The notes beneath the pieces are model-generated. The model was not told where the DNA came from and did not search any database. It was given only the letters and a program-made list of their open reading frames with translations. Of a DNA stretch of 64,000 bases, positions 1-64,000 are shown piece by piece. The translations under genes were made by a program, and so were the position numbers. Source of the DNA: Eledone cirrhosa (Eukaryota); NCBI GenBank assembly GCA_964016885.1, contig OZ024741.1, forward strand, positions 118,110,001 through 118,174,000, given 5' to 3'. How positions within the stretch are numbered: the first letter of the stretch is position 1; every line of letters begins with the position of its first letter.

Positions 1-1954
1 TTCCACAATTAGAGCGACCACATTTTTTGATACTTGGTTGTGGGTTTGTGGTAGGTAATTTGGCATTGGTGAGTAATGTTTTCAGTGATTTTGGTTGTCT
101 TTTGCTTTTGATTATTTTGTGTGTTTCAAGGGCTTTTTTCATTCTTGGGTTTTGTTTTAGTAGTGGGATGTTATTGTGAATAGTGTTGTAGGCTTCCGCA
201 TTTCTTGGGTTGTGTGTTGAGATATATGATAGAATATTGGACGTACCTTGAATTTGTTTCTGTTTCCGTAATTCATCAATGCCTATTGCTTTAGCCCTTT
301 CTATTCCATTATTTATTAGTAATAGTGGGTACTCTCTCTCAAGTAGAATTTCCTTTAATTCTTGAAGTCTTTTATTTCGCGTTTCATAATTGGAGACAAT
401 TGTGCAAATTCTTCTTGCTAGGTTAAAAGGAATGTTCGTCTTCGTGTGCTTTGGATGGTTGGAGGTGAATAGCAGATATTGTTTGGAATCTGTTGGTTTG
501 TAGTGTATGTCAGTTTCGATATTTGTGTCTTTTTTTGTGATTAAGATGTCCAGAAATGGGAGTTGATCTTGGCTGTATTCCATTGTGAATTGGATGTGGT
601 TATTGATGCCGTTTATTAAGTTTTTGAAATCCTTCAGTTGGTCGAGTGTGTGGGACCAAAGAATGAGGCAATCATCCAAGTAGCGTTTCCAATTCTCTGA
701 TAAATATTTGTGGAAGTTCAATCCGTATTTTGATTTGGACTGTTCATATATCTGGACTTCTAAGTATGCCATGACTAAGTTGGCATAAGTTGGAGCGGCT
801 TTTGTGCCCATCGCAGTCCCCGATATTTGCTTGTAAGTATTGCCATCGAAATCAAAAAAGTTGTTCTGTAGGATGAATTTTAATCCCTCGGTGATGAAGC
901 TTTTTTCTATTCTGTCAGGTATCTCATTGGGATATTTCTCTAGCCAGAATCCTATTGCTTCTAGTCCGTATTGGTGTGGGATCGTTGTGTAGAGATTCAC
1001 TACATCGAAAGACACAATAATAGTGTCGTTGTTGACATGTTTGGGGAGGTGGTTTAAGAGGTCCAGATCGTCTCTTACAAGGCTTGGTATGTGTTTCAGT
1101 ATTGGTTTCAGTAGTATGTCTATAAAGTTGCTCAATCTGTGTGTTTCACATTGTGGGCCCGCTACAATTGGTCTTAATTTAAGGTCTGTGGGGTATTGTG
1201 TGTTCACGCAGGCTGAGGTGGATTGTTTACAGGCATCGTTGATTATTTTACATTTGTGGATCTTCGGAAGTCCGTAAAGGTTGCTGGTTTTGTATTCAAA
1301 ATGTGTTAAATAATCGCGTTCCTTTTTAGTTAGGTCTTCCTGGTATCGATAAATCAGTGTGTTTAATTTGGTCATTATTTTTGATTGCTGGTAGTTTTTT
1401 ACTCTTTTATAGTAATTAGCATTTTGTAAGAGAGAGAACATAGAATTTTTATATTTTTCAGCCTCCATAATGACAACAGTACTTCCCTTGTCCGCTTCCT
1501 TAATTACAATGTCCGGATTGTTTTTTAGTTCATGGATAATCTCCCATTCCCTTCGACTTGTGTTGGGTTTGGGTTTAGGTTGCGGTAGTTCATGGTATGG
1601 GAAGGTAGCTATGTGGTCACAAAATTTGTCCAGAACTCTGTTTCTACCTTTTGTTGGGTTGTAGCTGCTTTTATTCCGTACAATTGATTCGTCGTTATTC
1701 TCCTTGTCAAAGAATTCCTCTGTGAGACGTAATTTTCTACAGAAGTGTGAGATATCGTCATTTATCTCGTTGGGGTTAGGATATTGTGGTGTTGGTGTGA
1801 ATTTCAGACCTTTGGAGAGAATTTTTACTTGTTGGGCTGAGAGGTTTGTATTTGAAATGTTAATTATTTTCGGTTTTTCAAAATCGGTTTGTGCCACCGG
1901 GTGTCGTGAGTCCTGTAGCCTTGGTCTAAAAAATGATTTTTCTGGAATGTTTTT
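1..1954 (-). CDS. Penelope-like element reverse transcriptase frame (runs off the window start; missing from the ORF track)
   Basis: Hand translation of the minus frame after the TGA at 1957-1955 gives LSKGLKFTPTP, IKEADKGSTVVIM, YGLPKIHK, RPIVAG, SFDVVNLY, GTAMGTKAAPTYANL, WKRYLDD, FLDI, DIHYKPTD and NIPFNLARRI. No stop was seen in the stretches translated. The first in-frame ATG is at 1468. Confidence 0.93.
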
Positions 1955-2454
1955 TCATTGGTATTATTATATCTAATGGTATTTCCCCTGTTGTTGTGTG
2001 GTCTTGTATAGAAGTTTCGGACGTATTGAGGTTCGGTTTGTTGATAGTCCGGGTTGTAGATTTGGTTCCTTTGTGTGGGTTGGGATCTATGGTTTTGGAA
2101 CAGGCTCTGTGTGGGCAGGGGTCTACGGTTTTGGAATAGGTTTTGTGTGGGTTGTGATCTGCGGATCAGGTCCTGCCTTGTGTTCGGGGATCTTTGGTTT
2201 TTGTTAGTAGGGTTATAGTTTTGTCTATGGTTTCTGGGATTATCGTTATAGTTTTGCTGGGGGTATGTTGGACGTTTTGTTACTTTTTTTGTTATTTGTT
2301 GTGCATGTGGTGTGTGAGTTTTAGTTTGTTTTAAAAATGGGTTACCTGTATGTTGTTCATTTTTGAAGTCCATTTCGTAGTTGTTGAACCAGGTGGCGTT
2401 TTTTTCCCATCGCTGGACTCTTTTTTTCCCACCTGAACTCTGACAGCTGGCCAT
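1864..2454 (-). CDS. Upstream N/Q/R-rich ORF (ORF1-like) of the same Penelope-like element
   Basis: About 196-aa low-complexity basic ORF with internal repeats (RSQPTQNLFQN/RPLPTQSLFQN/RSQPTQRNQ). It overlaps the RT frame by about 90 nt. Confidence 0.65.
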   Translation of the reverse strand: MASCQSSGGKKRVQRWEKNATWFNNYEMDFKNEQHTGNPFLKQTKTHTPHAQQITKKVTKRPTYPQQNYNDNPRNHRQNYNPTNKNQRSPNTRQDLIRRSQPTQNLFQNRRPLPTQSLFQNHRSQPTQRNQIYNPDYQQTEPQYVRNFYTRPHNNRGNTIRYNNTNEKTFQKNHFLDQGYRTHDTRWHKPILKNRK

Positions 2455-2891
2455 ATTCACTGAACCAGAAGATTTCTCCCAATCCCTTTTCCCTTGACCA
2501 CTATCTCTCCATTGTCATAACATTCATTATAAAGACTACAGAATAGTTTTCCAAATAAGGGCGCAAAAATGTAATGAAAACTTGTTCACGTGACAGCCAA
2601 ATTTCATTTATAACCAACCAAAAAAAAGCCTTCGTGAGCCTCATTTTTTCAAGTAAAAAGAAATTCAAACATTCATATATGAAAAAACAACCTGTGACAC
2701 CCCCCCCCCCCTCTCTTATTTGAAGAACTATTGTAACGCGAACTGGCGCGAAATTTATTATAATTATTGACAAACCAATCAAATTACTTCTCGAAAAACC
2801 TGGTTTTCGAGCCAGTTTTTCCATATAAAACAAGTAACATTTAGAGACCAACCAGATGTGAGAAAAACCACAGACCCTCCATCTCAACTCA

Positions 2892-2929
2892 CCTTTTGAA
2901 AAGCAGAAGAACTGCGAAACCGGTAAAGG
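2892..2929 (+). ncRNA. Minimal type I hammerhead ribozyme motif, U3-A8 core variant
   Basis: CCTT-TTGAAAA-GCAG(aagaa)CTGC-GAA-ACCGGT-A-AAGG. Stems I and II pair, stem III is palindromic, the triplet is GUA. Confidence 0.7.
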
Positions 2930-3061
2930 AACCAAATAAATATATATATTTAAAAAAAAAATAAGACTTCAGTTGCATTTTCGATTTCATCCCTTTTTCT
3001 TTATACTTCCACTCGTGTAGGACACCTCGGTTATTTTTCATTTTGTAAAAAAAAACCTCAC

Positions 3062-7578: not shown

Positions 7579-7582
<4 letters not shown>

Positions 7583-7920
7583 ATATTAATAAATAGAAAC
7601 TATATTTATAAAACCATAATTATTTTATTATATATATTTCAAGGGCAACCAAGGCAATTTTGGTGCGCTTTCATCAGATAAAATACAAAATATGTTTTAT
7701 AAATGTTGACATACCTGTAGAAAAACAACCTTGACGGTTGAAGTTTCGAGCGAACCTTCAACCGTCAAGGTTGTTTTTCTACGGGTATGTCAACATTTTA
7801 AAAACATATTTTGTATTTTATCTGATGAAAGCGCACCAAAATTGCCTTGGTTGCCCTTGAAATATATATAATAAAATAATTATGGTTTTATAAATATAGT
7901 TTCTATTTATTAATATATTG
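7579..7920. repeat. Long near-perfect palindrome (arms about 170 bp) beside (TA)n
   Basis: The arms are reverse complements around a centre at about 7750. A related single-arm copy lies at about 38230-38405. Confidence 0.92.
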
Positions 7921-17700: not shown

Positions 17701-17912
17701 AGCCTGGGTATCGGAATTTCAGCGTATGTCTCATCTGTCGCAGCTATTATATTTTATCTTGGAATTATTGCGGGTAAGTAAATATTTCACACACCTGCCG
17801 TCAATAATCTGTCTCTCTGTCTGTCATGTCTTTGTCAGTCCTGTCACGGTCTGTCAGTATATCTGACTCTCATGTCTCTGTAAATCTATCTGTCTCTACC
17901 TCTCTCTGTCTC

Positions 17913-17952
<40 letters not shown>

Positions 17953-19828
17953 CTTTCTCTCTAGCTAGATGCGAACCTAATTTTTTATTTTTATTTTATA
18001 TATGTATAGGTTCTGGAACTTCATTCATATTCATCGCTGTTAATTGTGGTATTGCTACTTATTTTGATGAAAACAGTAAACAGTTGATGTCTTTCATTTC
18101 CATTGGAGGTGCAGTGGGTGCGATACTTTTCCCTGTTTTTGTTTCCAAACTCATAGATGTATATTCTTGGCGAGGTAGCCTTCTTCTTCTCTGTGCATTT
18201 ACCGTACATTTAATACCATGCGGTTTGTTGTATTCTGTAAAGAAAATACGCCCAAAACGAAAGCCCTCCGCGAGTAGTGAAGGGAGAATTAATTCTAATG
18301 GCAGATCCTACCAAAGTACAAACAAGACATCGCAAGAACATTTTACAAGTACAACGAAAATGAAATCGTATTTAGATCAAATATCAAATGATTCGAATAC
18401 GGCTGGCTGCCTGTCACCGAAAATGAATGGAAAACAAAATTACTCAAAATCTCATATGACGTCAGTACAAGATGATATCAACGTTGGACGTGAAAATGAC
18501 GGCCATTTACAAGAAGTCAACGGGCGCCTTTCAAACAACGATCCAGACCATGAAGTAGAAATGAGTCAAACACGTATACTATTTACTATGCTATCTGATA
18601 ATACCTATCTCCTACTTCTGCTTTCCATAACCGGAGCGGTGAGCTTTATTATGTCGTTTGCAACAATTTTGCCTGACTACTTTCTAAATCGCGGATTGGA
18701 TATAGAAGAAAGCACGCGGATCTTTGTAATCGCGTCCATTGGGAACATTCCAGCGCGTTTTCTTTCCAGTTGGTTACTTTACAAAAACATATTATCAGCT
18801 ATAACGATTTTCAACTTATCAGGATTAATAGGCGCTGCACTACTTTTATTGTATCCCTATTTAACGTCAACATCAATGCTTATTTTACTGTCCTTCATGA
18901 TTTTCGTGACATCAGGATTGGGGCTGGCCGTCTTCAGCGTGACACTCTTGGAAATATTTGATCATAGAATATATTCTTGCTCGCTTGGACTTGCTATGAC
19001 TTTGTCTGGTTTGGGTCTTCCTGTCAGTGGATATGTAATTAGTAAGTATATTTTCTGTATTTCTTTAGTTAGCACGTGCCTTAGTCGTTACAACAGTGGC
19101 ACATTGAGCCTGAATAGGCTCCTGGTTGAAAACTTTATTGGGGCTCTTGTATATTATGTATGGCAACGAACAAAAATTAATTAGAGCAATCTTTAAATAT
19201 TGATTTCTAATATAAGCACAAGGCCAGTAATTTGGGGGGAGGGGAAGTCGATTAAATCGACCCCGTAAGAATGAAAGGCAAAGTTAACCTCGGCGGGATT
19301 TTAAGGACTCTGGCTACAGTACGATCAGATCCCTTCCATTAATCTTCCACTGCAATAGGGTGTTGAGTTCACGATCATAAATTCGTGGGCTCGATTCCTA
19401 CACTCATAATCGCGCGTTTACACAAACTCGAGCGCTTATACTTACACATGCACACACGGAAGCGCTTACAGTTTCAAATTAGAAGTAAAGACATGTTGAA
19501 CTCCACTAAAATTCACGGTACCTTTTAGTGCATTATTTTGTCAATCTCTAATGGCTTCTGGTTACAGTTACATAAATGTCTCCGTGCGTGTATGTGTGGA
19601 TATATTTTGTCATTTTCTTTCTTTTTTTCTGTCCTATTTTTATATTTTTTCCAATGATATATTGTATATATTTTTCTTTCTTTATTTCTTACAGGTGCAC
19701 TCAAAAATCGATATGAAAGCTACCATCCTTGCTACTATTTTCTATCACTACTTTGTTACGTTACCATTTTACCTTCCCTTATCCACTACATGGTGACTTA
19801 TTGGAAAAGAAATAGAGTTACTATTTGA
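12119..19828 (+). CDS. MFS transporter, SLC16/monocarboxylate-transporter family; join(12119-12276,16232-16431,17630-17773,18010-19041,19695-19828) = 1668 nt, 555 aa
   Basis: All four introns are GT-AG with matching phases (2,1,1,1). Motifs include NTKYGIRCSALVGGILMSLG, IIFYLGIIAGSG and LIDVYSWRGSLLLL. Two hydrophobic halves are separated by a long polar loop. Confidence 0.92.
14935..15130 (-). mobile_element. tRNA-derived SINE (intron 1)
   Basis: Reverse complement of the family consensus seen at 30878-31072. Confidence 0.85.
15505..16140 (+). mobile_element. 5'-truncated RTE LINE 3' end (same family as 61762-64000)
   Basis: IRGIRCSILKRRLCWYGHVMR, shared 3' UTR repeats and a (GAT)n tail. 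Confidence 0.85.
16232..16431 (+). CDS. SLC16-family gene, coding exon 2
   Basis: Acceptor attccag|; FHRTFGRNGLTEKIIVGTSAFVANAILFGFRSSLAIYLIEF...GIYGII; donor G|gtaagt. Confidence 0.9.
16885..17085 (+). mobile_element. tRNA-derived SINE (intron 2)
   Basis: Family core gcctttcatccttacggggtcgataaaataaagtaccagt. Confidence 0.85.
17630..17773 (+). CDS. SLC16-family gene, coding exon 3
   Basis: Acceptor caacag|; VFTGSFNTKYGIRCSALVGG...LGIIA; donor G|gtaagt. Confidence 0.93.
18010..19041 (+). CDS. SLC16-family gene, coding exon 4
   Basis: Acceptor gtatag|; core of the 452-aa ORF; donor A|gtaagt. Confidence 0.95.
19695..19828 (+). CDS. SLC16-family gene, last coding exon
   Basis: Acceptor ttcttacag|; ALKNRYESYHPCYYFLSLLCYVTILPSLIHYMVTYWKRNRVTI* (last TM helix). 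Confidence 0.88.
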
Positions 19829-35930: not shown

Positions 35931-36098
35931 ATAATAATAAAATTGAAGACTAAAATCCAAAGAGGGCTCGATAAGGAAAATATATATCAAATATATAAGA
36001 ACCGTAGAGCAAATATTTATTAAAATAACAGATTAAAGTTTAAGCAAAGAATCGCTGCTTTCACCCTTAATGGGATCTTCTGAAACTAACAAAGTCAA

Positions 36099-36325: not shown

Positions 36326-36760
36326 ATTAAGTTAAAAATGTACATCCACATATGTATACTGAAATACTAGTATGCATATGAACCGGTACGTACTCGCGCT
36401 CTATGCAGGTTGGTCTGCCCACTACTAGTTTTCATAGAAGAGGCATATAGCGATGTGTGCTTTCGCGATTCTCTGGAGAGGCCGGAGGATGGGTGAGTAT
36501 TGCTGATGAGATGTAACAACATCGAAACTAGTCCAATATTCCTTGTCTGGCTTTCTGGAGAATGGAGGAAAGGTGTTTCCTCAAAAACCAGTATGACTCT
36601 AAGAACCGGTTTGTCTGTGTGTCTACATACGGAATAGCTGGACACTCACAGTAAAGTGACCAGTGAAAACTCGGTACATCTACATATGTACACGTGTGTG
36701 TATTCATATGCATACTAGTATTTCAGTATACATATGTGGATGTACATTTTTAACTTAATT
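36324..36760. mobile_element. Fold-back insertion with about 58-bp perfect inverted ends (PLE/retrozyme-like)
   Basis: aattaagttaaaaatgtacatccacatatgtatactgaaatactagtatgcatatgaa and its reverse complement at 36703-36760. Confidence 0.85.
36496..36540 (+). ncRNA. Canonical minimal type I hammerhead ribozyme
   Basis: AGTATTG-CTGATGA-GATGT(aaca)ACATC-GAA-ACTAGT-C-CAATATT. Every core nucleotide is intact; predicted GUC cleavage after 36533. Confidence 0.9.
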
Positions 36761-37664: not shown

Positions 37665-37717
37665 TATTATTATAGAGTTCGATAAGGATAATATATATAA
37701 AACCGTAGAGCAAATAT

Positions 37718-37855
37718 TTATTAAAATAACAGATTAAGGTTTAAGCAAATAATCGCTGCTTTCACCCTTAACGGGATCTTCAGAAGATTTTCAGAAGATC
37801 CTGTAAAGGGTGAAAGCAGCGATTCTTTGCTTAAACTTTAATCTGTTATTTTAAT
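37718..37855. repeat. Palindrome of two back-to-back hammerhead-bearing arms; third copy at about 35965-36090 (-)
   Basis: Minus arm CTGAAGA-TCCC(gttaa)GGGT-GAAA-GCA...TGC-TT-AAAC. The plus arm and third copy read CAGAAGA. Confidence 0.75.
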
Positions 37856-37899
37856 GAATAAATAAATATATATATATATATAAATAAATAAATAAATAA

Positions 37900-38229: not shown

Positions 38230-38611
38230 GATATTAACAAATGGAAACTATATTTATAAAACCATATTTATTTCATTATACATATTTCAAGGACACCAAG
38301 TTAAATTATGGTGTGCTTTCATCAGATAAAATATAATATAGAGCAGTTTTATAAATAAATATTGATATACCCTTAAAGAATGCGACCATTACTGTTGGAA
38401 GCTCCCGGATATATATATATATTATAATAATAATAAAAATAATAATAATAATAATATTTATACTTATATACAGTATATAATCTATATATAATTAAAAATA
38501 AGATACGGGTAATATTGTGTATTACCCAATTACCAGTAAGAAAATTAGCTCAATGTAAATATCAGATATACAACATAGAAAACAATCAAACTTTTGTTTA
38601 ATGCATTTAAT

Positions 38612-39692: not shown

Positions 39693-39733
<41 letters not shown>

Positions 39734-39821
39734 CGAAGGAAGTGTGGTAAGGAACCAGGTGGACCGCACAAGAGTACTCAATACTTAGGGTAGTAGAGTG
39801 GGAAATAGGAAAATGTTCTCA

Positions 39822-41136
39822 AGACCCCGACGGCAGAGCTCAAGTCGTTTCGACGGCTATTTCTGGACTAAATTAGATTTTTAGCGTTGTAATAAATAGC
39901 CGAATTTTTCATGGAAGAAACAACCTAGACATTAATATAGAGCCGACCAGGAGGTGTAACTGCCCTGATAGATCTACGTGCCACCTCAACAACAGATGCC
40001 GAGAACGTAACGTGATCTACCAATGCAACGTGAGGACGGAAAACTCCAACAAAGCCTATATAGGATTAACCGCTTGTGACTTTAAGACCTGGCTCTACCA
40101 ACACCGACATACGTTCAGAAACCCGGCCCGGCGACATGCCACTACACTTTCGGGCCACATCTGGGACATCCAAGATAATAACATCACATACCATCTTACT
40201 TGGAGCTTACTTTCCAGAGCTAACTCCTACACGGGAGGACGCCGTCCGTGTAACCTATGCTCGGAGGAAACATTACAAATGCTGTTTACGAAGGACCAAC
40301 TCCTAAGCAAAAAGAAAAACGAAGTTGTAACCGCATGTAAACACCGATTGCGTAGGACTTACCTCGCCCTCAAACCCCCTCATGATCCGGGTGGGTAGAC
40401 AATGGCTGTAACATCCTTCTTTTCCCCACTTGCCGAACAAGATAGGGGAAACCCCAGCATACATAGGTAGATGTACTTCTTTTCTTTTTTCCCTTTATCT
40501 CTTCTTCTCACTTCCTTCCACTCCCTCTCCTCTTCCTTTTCCTTTTTCCTTTTTCGCTTACCCTGAGGCAGCCCATCAGGCTTTTGTAGCCTCAGTACCC
40601 CCACCCAGTAAATTCTATATAGCATTGGCCGAAAACGCAATACCAGCTAAAAGTATAGCAGCTGTTTTAGACTCTAGTTTTTTTTTGTTTTGTTTTTTAT
40701 TTAATTTTTTAATATTATTATTATTATTTTTATTTATTGTTTTTTTAATTTTTTTAATTTCAATCTATTAACTTTTTAATTCTATAACTTCCCACTCTCA
40801 GATTCCTCCAGATTTTTTTTCGCCTGCTTCCTAACTAGCCTATTTTCACCCACACTCCTTAGAATTTACTGTATAGAATTCACTTTCAACGCTTGACCGG
40901 CTCCACCTGCTCCCTCATTGTTCTACAGGCAAGTTCAGCCACCCCCACCTACCACACACCGCCATGAAAGATTTAATTATGTTTACAAGAAATTTTGACC
41001 AATCCTTTTGACAACTACAATTTTCCCATATAAGAAATTACCCCTTGAAAAGTTCGGCTATTTATTACCACGCTAAAAATCTAATTTAGTCCAGAAATAG
41101 CCGTCGAAATGGCTTGAGCTCTGCCGTCGGGGTCTT
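39822..41136 (+). mobile_element. 5'-truncated Penelope-like element: GIY-YIG endonuclease (about 39950-40398), 3' region and about 90-bp inverted ends
   Basis: CNC...C...C knuckle, VIYQC...AYIGLT...H...CNLCSEE. Inverted repeats at 39822-39911 and 41046-41135. Confidence 0.9.
41040..41133 (+). ncRNA. Type I hammerhead motif, U3-A8 core, extended stem II
   Basis: ACCCC-TTGAAAA-G..CGGCTATTT...AAATAGCCG.C-GAA-ATGGC...GCCGT-C-GGGGT. Confidence 0.7.
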
Positions 41137-41175
41137 AAACATTTTCATATATATATATATATAAATATATATATA

Positions 41176-42937
41176 TATAAAAGAAGTTAATATCCCCACA
41201 GGTACTAAGTACCCCTGGAAATATATAGGGTGTCTATGATACAGTGATTGTTCTATGGTATTAATTTGACATACCATACCAGAACTATAAAATTAAGATA
41301 AGCGGAGCAAGCAATATTCAAACAATTTTTTAAATAAATTAAAAAATATAATTTAAATATTTACCTATTCCATTTGCTTTTACCGACGGTTTCACTTCAC
41401 AAAAAATTGGAGATCTCTAGGGACTTCCAATGGAAAAGTTCAGATCATCAGAGTGCATTTTCCTTTCCTAGGACAAAAAGTCCCAGGAACGGCAAAATAT
41501 ATTGCCATCTGCCAGCTAGCACAGGATCGAATGGGGCCGAAAATTTGACCTATGCATGAACCAGCCCTTAGTAGAAGCGGAAGTAAACATAGACGTATTG
41601 TCTACCTCGCCACTAAAAATAGCAGCTAAATAAAACAACAGATTTGTTCTCTACATAACGGAGAATATTAAAAGAAGATAATATCCATTTAGGAGATTAG
41701 TATCAGGTGTATATAAATTATAAAGAACGACAATAATTGCAGGTGAGTGTTGTGACATGGTTTTACTTCACAGAAGTCAAATAAATTGATATAAATAATT
41801 GTTACCACATGTTGATGGTCAGTTGGTCACAACTCCCAGACTGGAGTGTGTGGAGAAGAACAGAAACCTTCTGGTGGTAAGGTTCAAGTGTTTCTTTAGG
41901 CTGCCGGCGCAGGAAGGGAGACAGGAGTCATCTCTTGACAAGGTTTGAAGTGTTCTTCTTGCGGGCGAAGGAAGTGAGAGAGAATTGCCTCGCGTTCTCA
42001 AATATATAGTCCCCAGGGGGACGCAACTCCGTTTAGTACATGGATCTGCCACTGGGAGCCGCGACCGTCACAAAGGGACGCAAGTCCTATGCGTATCTGC
42101 TACTGGGAGTCGCGACCGTCACAAAGGGACGCAACTCCTATACGTATCTGCCACTGGGAGTTGAGACCGTCGCAAAGGGACGCAACTCCTATACGTATCT
42201 GAGTTACAGCCGTAAGGGGCCGCTACATCCCCACAGGTATTAAGTACCCCTGGAAATATATAGGGTGTCTATGATACAGTGGTTGTTCTATGGTATTAAT
42301 TTGACATACCATACCAGAACTATAAAATTGAGATAAGCGGAGCAAGCAATATTCAAACAATTTTTTTAAATAAATAAAAAAATATAATTTAAATATTTAC
42401 CTATTCCAATTGCTTTTACCGACGGTTTCACTTCACAAAAGATTGGAGATCTCTAGGGACTTCCAATGTAAAAGTTTAGATCATCAGAGAGCATTTTCCT
42501 TTTCTAGGACACCCTATATATTTCCAGGGGTACTTAGTACCTGTGGAGATATTAACTTCTTTTAATATTCTCCGTTAGAGAACAAATCTGTTGTTTTATT
42601 TAGCTGCTATTTTTAGTGGCGAGGTAGACAATACGTCTATGTTTACTTCCGCTTCTACTAAGGGTTGGTTCATGCATAGGTCAAATTTTCGGTTCCATTC
42701 GATCCTGTGCTAGCTGGCAGATGGCAATATATTTTGCCGTTCCTGGGACTTTATGTCCTAGGAAAGGAAAATTCTCTCTGATGATCTAAACTTTTCCATT
42801 GGAAGTCCCTAGGGATCTCCAATCTTTTGTGAAGTGAAACCGTCGGTAAAAGCAATTGGAATAGGTAAATATTTAAATTATATTTTTTAATTTATTTTAA
42901 AAAATTGTTTGAATCTTGCTTGCTCCGCTTATCTCAA
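41176..42937. mobile_element. Array of a roughly 495-bp hammerhead-containing unit: about 1.6 tandem copies (-) split by a solo LTR, plus an inverted copy (+, 42507-42937)
   Basis: 41191-41474 is repeated at 42227-42511 and 42507-42937 is the reverse complement. Each copy carries CTGATGA...GAAACCGTCGGTA. Confidence 0.85.
41688..42227 (-). mobile_element. Probable solo LTR (540 bp) with about 3.5 copies of a 51-bp tandem repeat
   Basis: Minus strand starts TGTAG and ends CTAAA (CTACA with one change). Flanks are TCCA/TCCC. It has a TATA-like ctatatattt. The empty site is visible in the sister copy at about 42545. Confidence 0.7.
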
Positions 42938-42950
42938 TTATATATATATA

Positions 42951-48664: not shown

Positions 48665-51600
48665 AATGGATGACTGTAGCAATTACCGTGGGATATCCAT
48701 TATGTCTGTTATAGGCAAGGTCTTATGTACTGGACAGGCTTCTTGACAGCATAGCTGATGAAATCCTTCCTAAATCTCAGTGTGACTTTAGAAATGGTAG
48801 GGAGACATCGAACAACAGACAGCTGCAAGAGAAATGCATTGAGTGGGCAGCTGATGGATCTGTATCAGGTGTTTATCGATCTGACGAAGGCTTTTGATAC
48901 AGTCAATAGAATTGTCCTAGGGAAAATTCTCAAGAAACCCGGGTGACCTGATAAATTTGTCTGTGTTGGGTGGTTTCCATGATAAAATGAAGGCAACTGT
49001 CAACGTGGGTGGTAAGCTCTCTGATCCCATTGTGGTTGAAAATGGTGTTAAGCAAGAAGACATTCCGGCGCTGACTTTATTTGCGCTGTACTTTGTTATG
49101 GTTTTCTTGGTGGTCTTTGAAGGAGTCTACATTAGATATCGAACAACGGGTAAATTGATCAATATCAGAAGGTTTGCTGTCATGACAAAGATATTTACAT
49201 CGCTGATATGCAAATTCCTGTATGCCGATGACTGTCATCGCTCATTCCGAGAGTGACATGCAACGTCTTATGGATTCTTTTTCGAAAGTATGCAGTGTAT
49301 TGGGCTTAATAATCAGTCTGAAAAAGACTGTAGTGATGTATCAACCTGCACTAGGCAAAGCTTACTCTACGTCAAACATATATGTCTATGGTCAGAAATT
49401 GAAAGTCGTGGATAAGTTTGTATATCTAGGCAGCACTGTGAATGTGACCAATACTCTAGATCAGGGGTCACCAAACTACGGCCCGCGGGCCGGATCAGGC
49501 CCGCGACGTCAGTTCATCAGGCCCGCCGATGGTACTTGCATTTGCGTGATAAAACGGATGGAACACGAGATGTTTCTAATTCAATGTCTTTTTCATTTTC
49601 AGATCCCATTTTCTTCACCCTTTATTATGGCTACTAAGAAAAGAAAAGTGGACGCCAAGTGTCGCGTTTTCAATGAAGAATGGGGAGTAAAGTACTTCTT
49701 TGTGGAAACAAAGGACCAGAAAGCTAGTTGCGTGGTATGCAGCGAAATTGTTGCCGTTTTGAAAGAGCACAATCTTCGGCGTCACTATGAAACAAAACAT
49801 CTATCCACATATTCAAAGTTTTCTGGAAAGTTACGCTCTGAGAAATATGAGTCCATGAAACGTGGTTTAGAAACTCAAAGAAATCTCTTCACGAGAAAGT
49901 TTGCTGAAAATGAATCTGTCACTCGTACAAGTTACAAAATAGTGCATAAGTTGGCAGAGCGAGGAAAACCGTTTACTGATGGCAACTTCATCAAAGAGTG
50001 TATGATGGAAGCAGCAAATGACTTGTGTCTTGAGAATGCCGATTTGTTTGGAAGTATCAGCCTTTAGGCAAGTTCAGTTGTGCGGAGAACAGAAGAACTT
50101 GGAGAGAACATAGTGCTACAGATACGCGAGAAAGCTAGGAACTTGTGGTATTCTCTGGCGCTGGATGAGTCTACTGATCTCTCGAGTACGTCACAACTCT
50201 CGTATTCATTCGTGGTGTCAATTTGGACTTTCAGATAATGGAAGAGTTGGCATCCGTTTGCTGCATGCATGGAACAACAACTGGAAAAGACATTTTCGTG
50301 GAAGTGCAGAAAACTTTGCAAGGCTATAACCTTCAGTGGAATCAGCTTCGAGGTGTTACAGTTGATGGAGGAAAAAACATGGCTGGAGTGAGGAAGGGTC
50401 TGGTCGGGCAAATCAGGACTCTGTTGGAAGATTTGCAAATTCCGGGCGCTCTGTTCATACACTACATCATACATCAGCAAGCACTCTGTGGGAAAGACTT
50501 GGATATTTCTTGTGTACTGAAACCAGTCGTTTCTGCTGTGAACTTCATTCGGGACATGCACTCAATAACCGTCAATTCCAGGCTTTTCTTGAAGAAATTG
50601 ATTCTGATTTCTGTGACTTGCCTTATCACACAGCAGTGAGGTGGCTCAGTTGCGGTAAAGTCCTGTTTCGTTTTTACAAGCTCCGAAACGAAATAGATGT
50701 TTTTCTCACTGAAAAATATAGAGCTGATCCACAGCTGTCAGATCCTACCTGGCTGTCAAAGTTGACATTTTTGGTCGACATCACATCCCACATGAATGAA
50801 CTGAACTTGAAACTCCAGGGAAAGGATAACCTCGTCTGTGATCTCTACAGAATCATCAAAGGATTTCGGAGAAAGCTGTCAATGTTTGAAGCACAACTGG
50901 AAGGAGAAAACTTCTCTCATTTTCACTGTTTCAAAAAGTTTTGCGCTACAGTTGCTGAAGATGTCAACCTCGATTTTCCTAAAAAGATTATTCGTGACTT
51001 GAAGAAGCATTTTTTGGAGAGATTTTCAGATCTCGACAGAATTGAGAGTGACATTCTTCTGTTCCAGAATCCATTTGATTGTAACCTTGATGATGTGCCA
51101 GTTGAACTACAGTTGGAGTTCATTGATTTGCAAGCAAATTACTTGTTGAAAGAGAAGCACAGAGAAGGAAAACTTGTTGAATTTTACTGCTTCTTACCTG
51201 ATGTTGAGTATCCGAAATTGAAGAAATTTGCCGCTGGTATGGCATCATTGTTTGGAACAACTTATGTCTGTGAGCAAACATTTTCAAAAATGAAGTATGT
51301 GAAGTCAACACATCGAACGAGATTGACTGATGAACATTTGAAAGCAATTCTCTTGATTGGATGCAGCAATTCCAAACCAAACATTGATGATATCTTGAAA
51401 GCCAAACGTCAGTTTCACAAATCTCACTAACCTTTTTGCTGCTTAGTTTGTAAGATTCGGATATGTGCACACTAGGTCTGATGTAACTATATTTTTGCTA
51501 ACGTCGCCTTCTTTGATAACTTTTTAGTAAATAAATATGTTGGTTGTCTTTGTTTTTTGTGCATTGCACGCCACTCACCCATGATTAACACGGAATGCTA

Positions 51601-60145: not shown

Positions 60146-60480
60146 TGGAGGCACATGGCTTAGTGGTTAGAGCATTGGCCTTGCAATCGAAAGGTTGTGA
60201 GTTCAATTCTCAGACCGGGTGATGTGTTGTTTCCTTGAGCAAGACACTTTATTTCACATTGCTCCAGTTTACTCAGCTGTAGAAATGAGATGATAGGGAC
60301 TGAGGTCCTTATCATTCCACTGCAGAGTGGTCGTGGAGGTGCCACGGCAAAAAAGCACCCAGCACTCACTGTAAATGAGGTTGGTGTTAGGAAGGGCATC
60401 CAGCTGTAGAAATCAAGCCAAGATCAGTTCCCGTCCCACCCTTGCAAGCAGGGAAAAAGCGGACGTAAAATGAAATGATA
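60146..60480 (+). mobile_element. CORE-type tRNA SINE with an RTE-derived tail
   Basis: A/B-box-like head, ccttgagcaagacactt, then gttaggaagggcatcc...ggacgtaaaatga. Confidence 0.8.
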
Positions 60481-60490
60481 TATATATATA

Positions 60491-60985
60491 CCAATTTTAT
60501 AGTTCTGGTATGTCAAATTAATACATTTGAACAACAACTGTATCATAGACACCTTATATATTTCCGAGGGTACTTAGTACCTGTGAGGATATTGATCTCA
60601 TTTTATGTATATTCTCCCATGTGTAAAGAAAAAAATCCGTTGTTTAGCTAGCTATTTTTAGTGGTGTGGCAGACAACACGATTATGCTACTACTCCCGCT
60701 TCTACTAGCGACCAGTTCATGTGCAGGTCATGTTTACGGCCCCATTCGATCCTACACTAGCTGGCTGAAGGCAATATATTTGCCGGCTGTGGGACTTTAT
60801 GTCCTATGTAAGGGAAAATGCTTTCTGAAGAGCCGAACTTTCCATTGGAAGTCCCTTGGATTTCCAATCTTTTGTGAGGCGAAACCGTCGGTAAAAGCAA
60901 GATGGATAGGTAAATATTTAAATTATATTTTTTGAATTTATTTTGAAAGATTGTTTGAATTTTGCTTGTTCCGCTTATCTCAATT
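60491..60985 (+). mobile_element. Single monomer of the roughly 495-bp hammerhead-containing unit, in (TA)n
   Basis: Homologous to 41176-42937 but starting at a different register. Confidence 0.85.
60819..60899 (+). ncRNA. Canonical type I hammerhead ribozyme with a long stem II
   Basis: TGCTTT-CTGAAGA-GCC...(ATTGGAAGTCC ctt GGATTTCCAAT)...GGC-GAA-ACCGTCGGT-A-AAAGCA. Predicted GUA cleavage after 60893. Confidence 0.85.
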
Positions 60986-61053
60986 ATATATATATACATA
61001 TATATATATATATGTATATGCATGTGTGTGTATATATATATATATATATAAAT

Positions 61054-61330
61054 ATCAGTTCCCGTCTCACCCTTGCAAGCAGGGAAAAGCGGACGTAAAA
61101 TGATGATGATGATGATATATATATATATATATATAAATATATATCATCATCATCATTTTACGTCCGCTTTTCCCTGCTTGCAAGGGTGGGACAGGAACTG
61201 ATTCTGCCTGGATTTCTACAGCTGGATGCGCTTCCTAACACCAACCTCATTTACAGTGAGTGCTGGCTGCTATTTTGCCGTTGCACCTCCATGTCCACTT
61301 TGCAGTGGAATGATAGGGACCCCAGTCCTA
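61054..61330. repeat. Tail-to-tail SINE ends forming a palindrome (61054-61202) around (TA)n
   Basis: ccttgcaagcagggaaaagcggacgtaaaa(tga)n and its reverse complement. Confidence 0.85.
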
Positions 61331-62115
61331 TCATTTCTATACAGGTGATAAGCTTACATGCGTATGCAAACAACAAATCAATCAGTTATAATTAATTAAT
61401 GATTATTCACACAATATAGAAACCATCTGCATATTATCAGGATCATTAATAAGGATTGGATTCAACAAAAACACATATCAAGAACATTAGCATTAACAAG
61501 TGCTGAATATAGGCAAGCAATAAAGAAAGCAGGTGAAGCAGATGGATTTAATTTATAAACCTTGATTCTCTTCACTTTAAATATTCATGCTCTGCTACCC
61601 TCACTGTTCTCAACAGCAAGAATGTTAACCTTCAGAAGACTATTTCAATTGTTTTGTATACCTTATGTACCTTAAGCGTGCATTGAACTTTTCTCATCTT
61701 ACCAAAAGTAATAGTGGAATATTCCATTATAATCACATATATATATATATATATATATATATCATCATCATCATCATCATCAACGTTTAACGTCCGTGTT
61801 CCACGCTTGCATGGGTTTGGACGGGGGTAGTCCCACTTGAGGCAAGAGTGATTGTCTTGCTCGCATAGGACTGTCTGGCAGGTTTTCTACAGTTGGATGC
61901 CCTTCCTAACACCAACCACATTTACAGTGTGGGTCTGGGAGGTTTTTACCGTGTTGCCTACACGGCCACATTACAGCGTGGACTGTGTGTTTTTTTGTCG
62001 TGACACCTACACGATCTCATTTGTTTCGGCCTGGATGGCGCGGCACCAACATAACTTTACATAGAACGGGGTGGTGTGGATGGGGTGGGGTGGTGGCGGG
62101 ACGGGGTGTATTTTG

Positions 62116-64000
62116 TTAGAGATGCCTACTGGCAAGGCGGGTCTTCTCTGTTACTGAGTACCGCCAAAGGTCTCGGTCCAGTGACATTGTCTTGGAGAGG
62201 TGTAAGTGTGTGAGGTCGGAGTTTATCAGCTCGTCCCAGGTTTTTCTAGGTCTGCCTATTCCGTGGCTACCGTCTATCTTTATTGCCCTGCACTTTGTTA
62301 TACAGCTATCGACTTTCATGCGCATCACGTGTCCATACCAACGTAGCCTTCTCTCGAGTAAACAACATCTGATCCCTCTTATCTCTAATTTTTTCCTTAG
62401 TTCGTTTATGCTTTGCCGTTCACGTATATTACTGTTACACATCCAGCGGAGCATGCAAGCTTCGTTCCTCTCTAGTCTGCGTATATCCTCTGCACACAAT
62501 GCCCAGGTCTCACTGCCATGCAACATTGCTGTTCGTATGCAGGCATCGTACAACCTGCCTTTCATTTTTAGGGAGAACCCTTTAGCAGCTAATAGTGGTA
62601 TAAGCTCTCTGAACTTTTTCCAACCAGTTCTGACTCTAGCTACAGTACTTTCAGAGCACCCTCCCCCACTGCTGATTTTATCACCCAGGTAACGGAAGCT
62701 GTCCACTATTTCTATAGAACCCTCTGCGCAATTGAAAGAGCTAGTATTTTGTGGGCACTTGCTGCTACTTATTGCACCAGAACACCGGCCACATGTAAAA
62801 TCTATGTTCTTAGTTAGCTTACCTGTGATCCCACTACATCTTTTATGCACCCATACTTTGCATTTAGGACATAAAATGGAGTTTCTACCTACGCCTTTCC
62901 TACACACCGAGCACGACCATTTCCCAGAAGGGACCGCCGCCTTGTTTTCTTTCCTACAAACTAGAACTTTGGTCTTAGCCAGGTTAATTTTAAGTCCTTT
63001 TGACTCTAGGCCGTGCTTCAATGTTTGGAATTTCTTCTCTAGCTCGGCCATTGATTCCGCTATGAGTGTCAGGTCGTCTGCGTATAGGAGTTCCCATGGG
63101 CAGCCTGTCTTGAACTCCTCTGTTATAGCCTGAAGGGCAATAATAAATAGTAGGGGGCTGAGAACAGAGCCCTGATGGACGCCAACTTTTACGCTAAACT
63201 CTTCACTATATTCGTTGTTAATTCTAACCTTGCTGACTGTTTCTTTATACATGGCTTGTATAGCCCTCACAAGCCATTCGTCAATGCCTAGTTTTCTAAG
63301 AGCCCACCAGATAATGGAGCGGGGGACTCTGTCGAAGGCTTTCTCCAGGTCGACAAAAGCTAAGTAGAGGGGTTTACCTTTAGCTAGGTACTTCTCCTGT
63401 AGTTGTCGTACTATGAAAAGAGCGTCTGTGGTGCTTTTGCCTGACACAAACCCGAACTGCATTTCATCTAGGTCAATTCTCTCTCTGATTAGTTGCGCTA
63501 TTACTTTTTCCGTGACCTTCATGACCTGGTCGATTAATTTAATGCCTCTATAGTTACTCCTATCTAGGGCGTCTCCTTTACCCTTATAACAGTTAACGAT
63601 GATGCTGCTATGCCAGTCCTTCGGAACAACCCCATTCTGTACGACTTGGTTAACTATGTGGGTGACCATGGTGTGTCCCACCGTGCAAGATGCCTTCAGC
63701 ATCTCAGCAACTATTTCCGAAGGCCCAGCCGCCTTACCCGTCTTCATATCCTTGATTGCCTTACTTATTATACTCCCCTCGACTAACACTGCTGGTCCCT
63801 CTATTGGGTCGATATGGGGGAGACTGTCTTTCTCCCATTTATTCTCCTCATTTAGTAGCCTTTCATAGTGACACTTCCAAGCTACCTTCTTATCAGTGTC
63901 GGTGATGGCAAGTATGCCATCATCGTTAAGTACACACTTCTCCCCGACAATATCACGGTTTTCCTTGACGCATTGCCTAGCAATCCTGAACACCTCACGT
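62116..64000 (-). CDS. RTE-clade LINE reverse transcriptase ORF (uninterrupted; continues beyond the window)
   Basis: At least 625 aa: NYRGIKL, QFGF, AFVDLEKAFDRV, GVHQGSVLSPLLF, LYADD, FRYLG, LRWYGHVMR. 3' UTR 61782-62115 and (GAT)n tail at 61762-61781. Confidence 0.96.
   Translation of the reverse strand, partial: REVFRIARQCVKENRDIVGEKCVLNDDGILAITDTDKKVAWKCHYERLLNEENKWEKDSLPHIDPIEGPAVLVEGSIISKAIKDMKTGKAAGPSEIVAEMLKASCTVGHTMVTHIVNQVVQNGVVPKDWHSSIIVNCYKGKGDALDRSNYRGIKLIDQVMKVTEKVIAQLIRERIDLDEMQFGFVSGKSTTDALFIVRQLQEKYLAKGKPLYLAFVDLEKAFDRVPRSIIWWALRKLGIDEWLVRAIQAMYKETVSKVRINNEYSEEFSVKVGVHQGSVLSPLLFIIALQAITEEFKTGCPWELLYADDLTLIAESMAELEKKFQTLKHGLESKGLKINLAKTKVLVCRKENKAAVPSGKWSCSVCRKGVGRNSILCPKCKVWVHKRCSGITGKLTKNIDFTCGRCSGAISSSKCPQNTSSFNCAEGSIEIVDSFRYLGDKISSGGGCSESTVARVRTGWKKFRELIPLLAAKGFSLKMKGRLYDACIRTAMLHGSETWALCAEDIRRLERNEACMLRWMCNSNIRERQSINELRKKLEIRGIRCCLLERRLRWYGHVMRMKVDSCITKCRAIKIDGSHGIGRPRKTWDELINSDLTHLHLSKTMSLDRDLWRYSVTEKTRLASRHL

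Follow-up and report, generated by a model that had tools for sequence, protein, structure and literature searches.

The window, a 64,000-nucleotide stretch of the Eledone cirrhosa genome (contig OZ024741.1, positions 118,110,001 to 118,174,000), carries at 41179-42939 two back-to-back arms of a short hammerhead repeat, one of which is split by a solo LTR, and further downstream a single insertion of the same family. The principal features are listed below in window coordinates, unit numbers being positions within the 490-nt repeat and A and B the two sites at which insertions end.

39733..41145, plus: 5'-truncated PLE, with an endonuclease-like frame at 39877-40395 that has no Pfam match
41179..41687, minus: tandem arm, 3' part; unit ~97 to 490, junction at ~41291-41295, then a ~117-nt tail
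41375..41457, minus: type I hammerhead motif; C3 at 41451, GUA cut after 41381
41688..42227, minus: solo Ty3/Gypsy LTR, a later insertion; begins TGTAGC
42228..42511, minus: the same tandem arm, 5' part; from unit 310 to 490, across the junction (~42326-42330) and on to unit 100
42411..42493, minus: type I hammerhead motif; C3 at 42487, cut after 42417
42508..42939, plus: inverted arm; from unit 58 as far as site A, where it abuts (TA)n
42772..42854, plus: type I hammerhead motif; C3 at 42778, cut after 42848
42850..42930, plus: predicted long AU-rich hairpin between cut site and site A; z -3.1
60491..60985, plus: independent one-unit insertion of another subfamily; ends at site A, (TA)n flanks
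within 60491..60985, plus: hammerhead; C3 at 60825, cut after 60893, 6-bp helix I fully paired

The monomer at 60491-60985 aligns with 41171-41686 (minus), 42227-42511 (minus) and 42508-42939 (plus) at 81-87% identity. The preliminary description had reported this monomer with related pieces at 41176-42937, and these are indeed present with a 490-nt period; the fusions of unit end to unit start that it had placed near 41295 and 42330 on the minus strand were recovered within a few nucleotides. Its tandem and inverted copies both exist as well, but 41688-42227 within them is a Gypsy LTR and no part of the unit. Removal of the LTR leaves a single minus arm lying back-to-back with the plus arm, and the locus therefore resolves into one insertion and one later LTR. 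Without the LTR, the minus arm measures ~790 nt or 1.6 units, running from unit 310 to 490, through a full turn and into a tail that reaches ~122 and stops at site B, abutting (TA)n. The two arms overlap by 4 nt at the inversion point (42508-42511), are 96.5-96.7% alike (differing by ~3.5%) and have both outer ends in (TA)n. As one array was split by the LTR, the two 'different registers' seen here come from that one array, and the circular permutation at this locus is partly an artefact of the LTR insertion; the wider claim that copies begin at different registers survives for their 5' ends, which scatter. Frames that begin with Met reach at most 25-33 aa in the three locus pieces and 83 aa in the monomer. 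Overall, the copy at 41179-42939 is a decayed, ordinary member of its family.

The LTR at 41688-42227 (540 nt) is unrelated to the 490-nt unit and is bordered by a 4-bp target duplication, TCCA (41684-41687) and TCCC (42228-42231). Genome-wide there are 576 first-look candidates, often paired 4.5-5 kb apart. Four such pairs were retrieved, flanking frames that read as Gypsy gag-pol and carrying 4-bp target duplications; the primer site TGGTGACC comes after the 5' LTR in the paired copies, and Pfam on two frames of one element (L062) found RVT_1, RT_RNaseH and rve between the LTR copies. The element is thus like Ty3/Gypsy in its ~4.5-5 kb pairs around RT, RNase H and integrase frames and in its 4-bp duplications, and unlike it in ending TG...AAA and not TG...CA. 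The candidate reading of 41688-42227 as the internal body of a ribozyme element was rejected on the pairs and the gag-pol frames. In this Gypsy family (41688-42227; L061-L064) the LTR holds 2-4 tandem ~52-nt repeats.

Several further elements share the window. The PLE at 39733..41145 has an inverted arm of its own and a ~72-nt tail at one end, and is a separate insertion divided from the 41179-42939 locus by (TA)n. Positions 1-3035 (minus), taken together with another genomic copy (L065:8475-10000), describe a near-complete Neptune-like PLE with inverted termini, the RT lying in the window copy, the GIY-YIG in L065 and a tail on the window end only. At 7579-7920 and 38231-38375 lies a palindromic insertion, each arm of which has CUGAUGA...GAAA hammerhead-like motifs; it is probably the terminus of another PLE family and resembles the sequence before the PLE ORF at L134. 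A separate hammerhead lies at 36485-36556 (plus; Rfam HH9, 33.4 bits, under the gathering score of 52), and 36000-36085 and 37701-37860 hold a short, very abundant inverted element whose core is hammerhead-like; one copy of this element elsewhere (L028:1947-2016) is fused back-to-back with the 490-nt unit. By eye, 17808-19181 (plus) is a long frame resembling an exon of a monocarboxylate-type MFS transporter, 62119-63999 (minus) is an RTE-like LINE frame, and the broken frames at 49207-51427 (plus) we take to be a hAT-like (GTF2IRD2/SPIN-type) transposase. Around the monomer, tRNA-related SINE-like copies are inverted with respect to each other (60156-60490, 61051-61348), with a weak Rfam tRNA match at 60156-60213.

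The 490-nt family and its hammerhead

The monomer has a period of 490 nt plus a 5-nt terminal repeat, and a GC content of 37%. The host genome is 3.0 Gb in about 30 large contigs with very long (TA)n tracts. In it a 17-mer from the ribozyme core has 379 exact matches, against 2 for its control, and a 28-mer from the start of the tail has 446 against 0; a DNA search with the unit gave 2772 first-look candidates, of which 40 were scored. Among near-full copies, 71 of 73 can be assigned to one of two subfamilies, the majority rows of which agree at 86.5%, and the copies at 41179-42939 and the monomer belong to different ones; more variants were met among loci whose letters after GUA had changed. 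There is also a sister family (524-526 nt, ~65% alike to the 490-nt unit) with 429 exact motif matches. Its copies (L141-L170, for example L157:1437-2165) have a predicted GUU cut and a longer hairpin before site A, are younger (up to 98-100% alike) and in one place (G000:C1:179145860-179146933) hold three cores in tandem. A third, more distant hammerhead unit of ~480 nt with a CUGACGA core and a GUA site stands beside a family copy at L014:900-1500. Four cores spaced ~4 kb apart on contig C2 were considered as a tandem PLE and rejected, being a segmental duplication: L126/L127 (G000:C2:144.35-144.37 Mb) comprise at least 4 tandem duplications of ~4 kb, each an L1/Tx1-like fragment with 100 nt of the unit.

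The absence of a credible ORF, already put forward from the window, holds for the family. The majority rows of both subfamilies contain 5-12 stops in each of the six frames, and the longest open run is no longer in sense than in antisense (medians 69.5 and 71.5 aa). A 168-aa run in one copy raised the idea of an endless or conserved ORF round a circle, which was rejected since the majority rows are closed in every frame. Both subfamilies and the sister family retain this ORF-less period.

Each copy was said to carry one hammerhead, and single cores are found at each of the four C3 positions listed above. The Rfam scan of the window did not report these hammerheads at E<=1; their support comes from manual structure and covariation. 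In 62 aligned copies (two from the window and a random 60 of 91 distinct ones) the stems are paired in 90.6% of cells, compared with 29-51% in slid controls. Changes on both sides of a pair occur in 46 cells against 18 in shuffles, with 0 of 500 shuffles as high, counts that are inflated by the relatedness of the copies; the pattern used to select copies held the core and helix III constant. One helix I pair is seen as UA, AU, CG and GC, that is, in all four Watson-Crick types, and pair counts and pair-type counts lie within the shuffles (74 and 41 of 500). The helix II base is unpaired (U.U) in 35 of the 62 copies and one helix I position in 25. The subfamily of 41179-42939 has U.U at the helix II base and C.A in helix I, with one or two helix I mismatches per copy; the motif at 41375..41457 has two of these and the U.U. 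Helices I and II carry compensatory changes between subfamilies, a pattern that, as far as the sequences tell, indicates selection on the ribozyme.

In the predicted fold of all four window motifs, the CUGA of the core pairs with UCGG, which makes the shape an inactive one. Dimer-dependent cleavage is described for hammerheads with a palindromic helix III in the portion of PMC4209133 used here, and the predicted inactive fold of the lone motif may fit such a mode. Four observed units folded as circles gave z of -2.7 to -9.5 in sense and -0.1 to -4.2 in antisense (12 shuffles each), and the long AU hairpin ahead of site A is predicted with z about -3. The family thus has the attributes of the retrozyme-type, non-coding tandem repeat that had been proposed, with a type I hammerhead in each unit.

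Insertion ends and the relation to PLEs

Insertions were mapped in two sets, 131 (13 loci dropped as same-place repeats; LTR, PLE and sister-family loci omitted) and a further 44 (16 same-place repeats dropped), the latter from 60 loci of which 30 were chosen by the tail motif, which favours B. Their 3' ends fall at two sites, A at ~92 nt after the GUA site and B ~117 nt further on. Single-arm insertions (n=116) have their end at A in 86 cases, at B in 23 and at another position in 7; as arms of <35 nt were left unscored, some of the 'single' B ends may conceal a tiny A arm. The inverted back-to-back insertions (n=54) comprise 38 with A+B, one with A+A, none with B+B and 15 with some other end, while 5 of the 175 are odd. 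A+B hence accounts for 38 of the 39 classifiable inverted insertions (binomial p=7e-11), and for 21 of 22 in the subset chosen by core pattern only, the other being A+A. The 5' ends of the 184 arms are scattered round the unit. Random circular permutation, the expectation of the preliminary description, is therefore not what the plotted ends of 175 insertions display: the 3' ends are fixed at two sites and only the 5' ends vary. No pile-up of 5' ends occurs at the cut site (6 of 184, ~6 expected), and RT run-off at a cleaved 5' end was rejected for want of any excess there. (TA)n lies at one or both ends of 127 of the 131 insertions, as against 257 of 2872 random positions (9%), and masks the target duplications of unit insertions.

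The arms run past the cut site and the unit junction, up to ~1.9 units (912 nt): the tandem junction is spanned by 83 of the 184, the cut site is crossed by 157 and crossed twice by 25, and 96 pass site B and go on into the non-coding unit. A template longer than one cleaved monomer had been suggested, and the counts bear this out: a cleaved linear monomer yields only 92 nt from A, so that arms crossing the cut call for a circle or an uncut multimer. Turns within one arm differ by 5.6% and opposite arms by 5.0%, which is a weak test of circle versus linear multimer, and comparison of turns within arms, equally weak as a test, gave no consistent polarised difference indicating a fixed dimeric master. 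Fold-back copying of one arm from the other was rejected as the sole origin of inverted copies; it fails for some of them, as either arm may hold sequence missing from the other (for example L023, L068, L069).

The two-end pattern extends beyond this family. The sister family has A+B in 7 of 7 inverted insertions, with arms up to 1156 nt, and three PLE families of the genome share the pattern with tails of ~55, 60 and 72 nt among the matches listed. The candidate PLE helpers suggested earlier thus gain from the PLE-type ends that the unit shares with ORF-bearing PLEs of the genome, and PLEs are present in the window. In none of the 175 insertions does the unit frame or adjoin an RT plus GIY-YIG ORF as a terminal repeat, which bears on the earlier question of whether it ever flanks an RT ORF. 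A PLE ORF match lies within 1.5 kb of 19 of 131 insertions, and the nearest such ORFs have termini and hammerheads of their own; those near L132 and L134 were rejected as the unit's ORF on account of their own termini and the (TA)n between. Comparison of the unit with 13 PLE stretches (best E 0.065) and with 19 loci of the PLE family met at L206, which carry their own hammerhead, showed no similarity, and no autonomous partner with matching sequence was found among the sampled PLE families, a minority of those in the genome.

Five insertions (L206, L204, L171, L175, L185) adjoin PLE pieces with no TA between. PLE-abutting ends number 5 of 262 against a 0.8% background, which is not clearly above it (p=0.066 in a crude test, with one library row derived from L206 itself). 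In L204 and L171, which involve two different PLE families, the order is (TA)n, a unit arm ending at A, a PLE arm with tail (B) and (TA)n. L206 has a unit B arm and after it 1.3 turns, which halt at the GUA site and are joined, over ~3 shared letters, to the middle of the ORF of a PLE whose part ends at its own A end; one cut-site end thus stands with one intact upstream site. L185 is a same-direction join, and the composites L175 and L028, the latter with the small hammerhead element, look A+A, contrary to the A+B rule. The chance that a junction falls within 1 nt of the cut site is ~0.6%, for a single case spotted post hoc. A search for more (30 loci of 75 pattern matches with changed letters after GUA) gave 29 ordinary variants. 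The arrangement of the composites is suggestive of joint insertion, and the GUA-site junction of L206 may hint at self-cleavage of the transcript.

Known systems, rival explanations and a likely route

It is helpful to place the unit among described elements, citing each source for the excerpts used here. Like PLE pLTRs (PMC3846280, PMC8557442, PMC11167929), it shows partial tandems, an inverted 5'-truncated arm, a tail at one end, an AT-rich target and a type I hammerhead; unlike them it has no ORF, its tail runs into the next unit and not into a coding region, and at ~117 nt that tail exceeds both the 30-40 nt of described PLEs and the 55-72 nt of PLEs in the E. cirrhosa genome. With animal non-LTR retrozymes (PMC7229834; bioRxiv 10.64898/2026.07.22.740005) it shares a non-coding, AT-rich head-to-tail unit with one type I hammerhead, a branched self-paired predicted fold and coexistence with PLEs; the U.U at the helix II base recurs in axolotl HHR_Amex2, and the 490-nt length compares with 150-450 bp in PMC7229834 and 51-972 bp in the bioRxiv paper. 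It differs from the retrozymes described there in occurring mostly as dispersed 0.3-1.9-mers in (TA)n, often inverted, and in a helix II lengthened by an 11-bp hairpin; two fixed 3' ends and PLE composites, seen in the unit, are absent from the excerpts of both papers. The sequencing runs inspected for expression of the unit (X1 and X4; X2 and X3 come from the X1 sample) behave as DNA. Target duplications of non-LTR retrozymes are given as >4 bp when present. Non-autonomous Chlamys PLEs such as MRC1 (PMC8557442) are likewise non-coding, PLE-type head-to-tail insertions, but MRC1-type elements resemble an autonomous partner at the 3' end, for which no counterpart was found for the unit, and most Chlamys are without the hammerhead that the unit has. 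In the excerpts of PMC7229834 the words 'octopus' and 'cephalopod' do not occur, a repeat annotation of O. vulgaris (PMC13282606) reports active Penelope families and, in the part consulted, leaves ribozymes unmentioned, and the open-access text searched yielded no paper on a 490-nt family or on retrozyme tails, although supplements and repeat libraries may name the family otherwise.

Several origins for the copies have to be weighed. It seems improbable that they are orphan pseudo-LTRs, the 5'-truncated ends of an unsampled or extinct ORF-bearing PLE, an alternative raised earlier and now weakened. Every insertion hallmark is PLE-like, most PLE insertions are 5'-truncated, retrozymes derived from pLTRs are described in bioRxiv 10.64898/2026.07.22.740005, and the 175 insertions sample a family probably numbering thousands; against this, the tail continues into the ORF in the PLEs treated in PMC3846280 and PMC11167929, whereas here more than half of the arms continue past B in non-coding sequence of the unit and 25 extend to a second hammerhead, the unit is unlike the PLE stretches and L206-family loci compared, and the subfamilies and even the 65%-alike sister family all keep an ORF-less period. 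Less credible still are arrays made at the DNA level by satellite-like duplication and inversion, with the PLE composites left by deletions between adjacent independent insertions. PLE pieces are common in the same TA-rich surroundings, their abutment falls short of significance and L126/L127 are plain segmental tandem duplication, so such an origin is possible for individual composites; as a general account it fails on the dispersed copies, the scattered 5' ends, the two fixed 3' ends and the one tail per inverted insertion.

A linear, non-autonomous mini-PLE deserves more weight, though we consider it unlikely. Its templates would be read-through transcripts of genomic 1.5-2-mers, with no circles, and the hammerhead a passenger or a trimmer of precursors. 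Consistent with this, arms are capped at ~1.9 units (1156 nt in the sister family), insertion by PAc in vitro needs no hammerhead cleavage (PMC11167929, in the part cited), 8 of 9 Xenopus dimers are reported as uncleaved in vitro (bioRxiv 10.64898/2026.07.22.740005), and the cut-site end of L206 beside its intact upstream site fits a linear multimer cut once. The compensatory helix I and II changes, which point to ribozyme selection, speak against a passenger, and the near-equal divergence of turns and arms, weak though that test is, carries no signal of a fixed dimeric master.

The reading that we favour, at a probability of roughly 0.7, takes the unit, a non-coding hammerhead repeat, for a likely non-LTR retrozyme, and has its RNA copied into (TA)n, probably by the PLE endonuclease/RT of other elements; it is drawn from sequence patterns. 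The PLE protein studied by Frangieh 2024 (PMC11167929) is described, in the sections used here, as cutting AT-rich DNA on both strands, with two internal RT start sites that bound the genomic PLE tail and uncut RNA as the main substrate, and the tail sits on one of the inverted pLTRs according to the relevant passages of Arkhipova 2013 (PMC3846280). Site A lies 92 nt after the cut, and the first start of Poseidon_Ac 85-92 nt after it, as computed from coordinates in PMC11167929; the A and B ends fit the two PLE start sites of that work. Under the favoured retrozyme reading, a PLE enzyme would nick (TA)n and begin reverse transcription inside the unit RNA at A or B, the template probably being a circle or uncut multimer. 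A lone hammerhead would be inactive, given the predicted CUGA/UCGG pairing, and would cut chiefly as a dimer through its palindromic helix III. Where priming takes place at both target ends, A would serve as one start and B as the second, and back-to-back joining of the two cDNAs via short homology would give the structure found at 41179-42939; a Gypsy element would have inserted afterwards and left the solo LTR at 41688-42227.

One can go further, tentatively and with the odds somewhat against it, and picture PLE integration as a two-RNA, two-start-site reaction in which one complex primes A on one RNA and B on the other. Retrozyme RNA would then be a generalist passenger, pairing in single events with the RNAs of unrelated PLE clades (Neptune-like and at least 2 others), and L206 would be a fossil of in vivo cleavage, the PLE RT having jumped to a retrozyme RNA ending at GUA. 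If true, this would be direct evidence, from the genome, that PLEs mobilise retrozymes, a process so far proposed from co-occurrence and from shared hammerheads or sequence kinship (PMC7229834, bioRxiv 10.64898/2026.07.22.740005), the excerpted text of the latter describing the mechanism of mobilisation as unresolved.

Taken for what it is, the family belongs to a known kind of element, and its insertion scars of PLE type are unusually clear. The 490-nt family itself carries the PLE integration signature, with exact coordinates for the two start sites, and these coordinates make the claim that PLEs are the mobilisers directly testable by the published in vitro PLE assay. Moreover, both the A+B rule and the mixed insertions are relevant to the way in which PLEs form their inverted structures.
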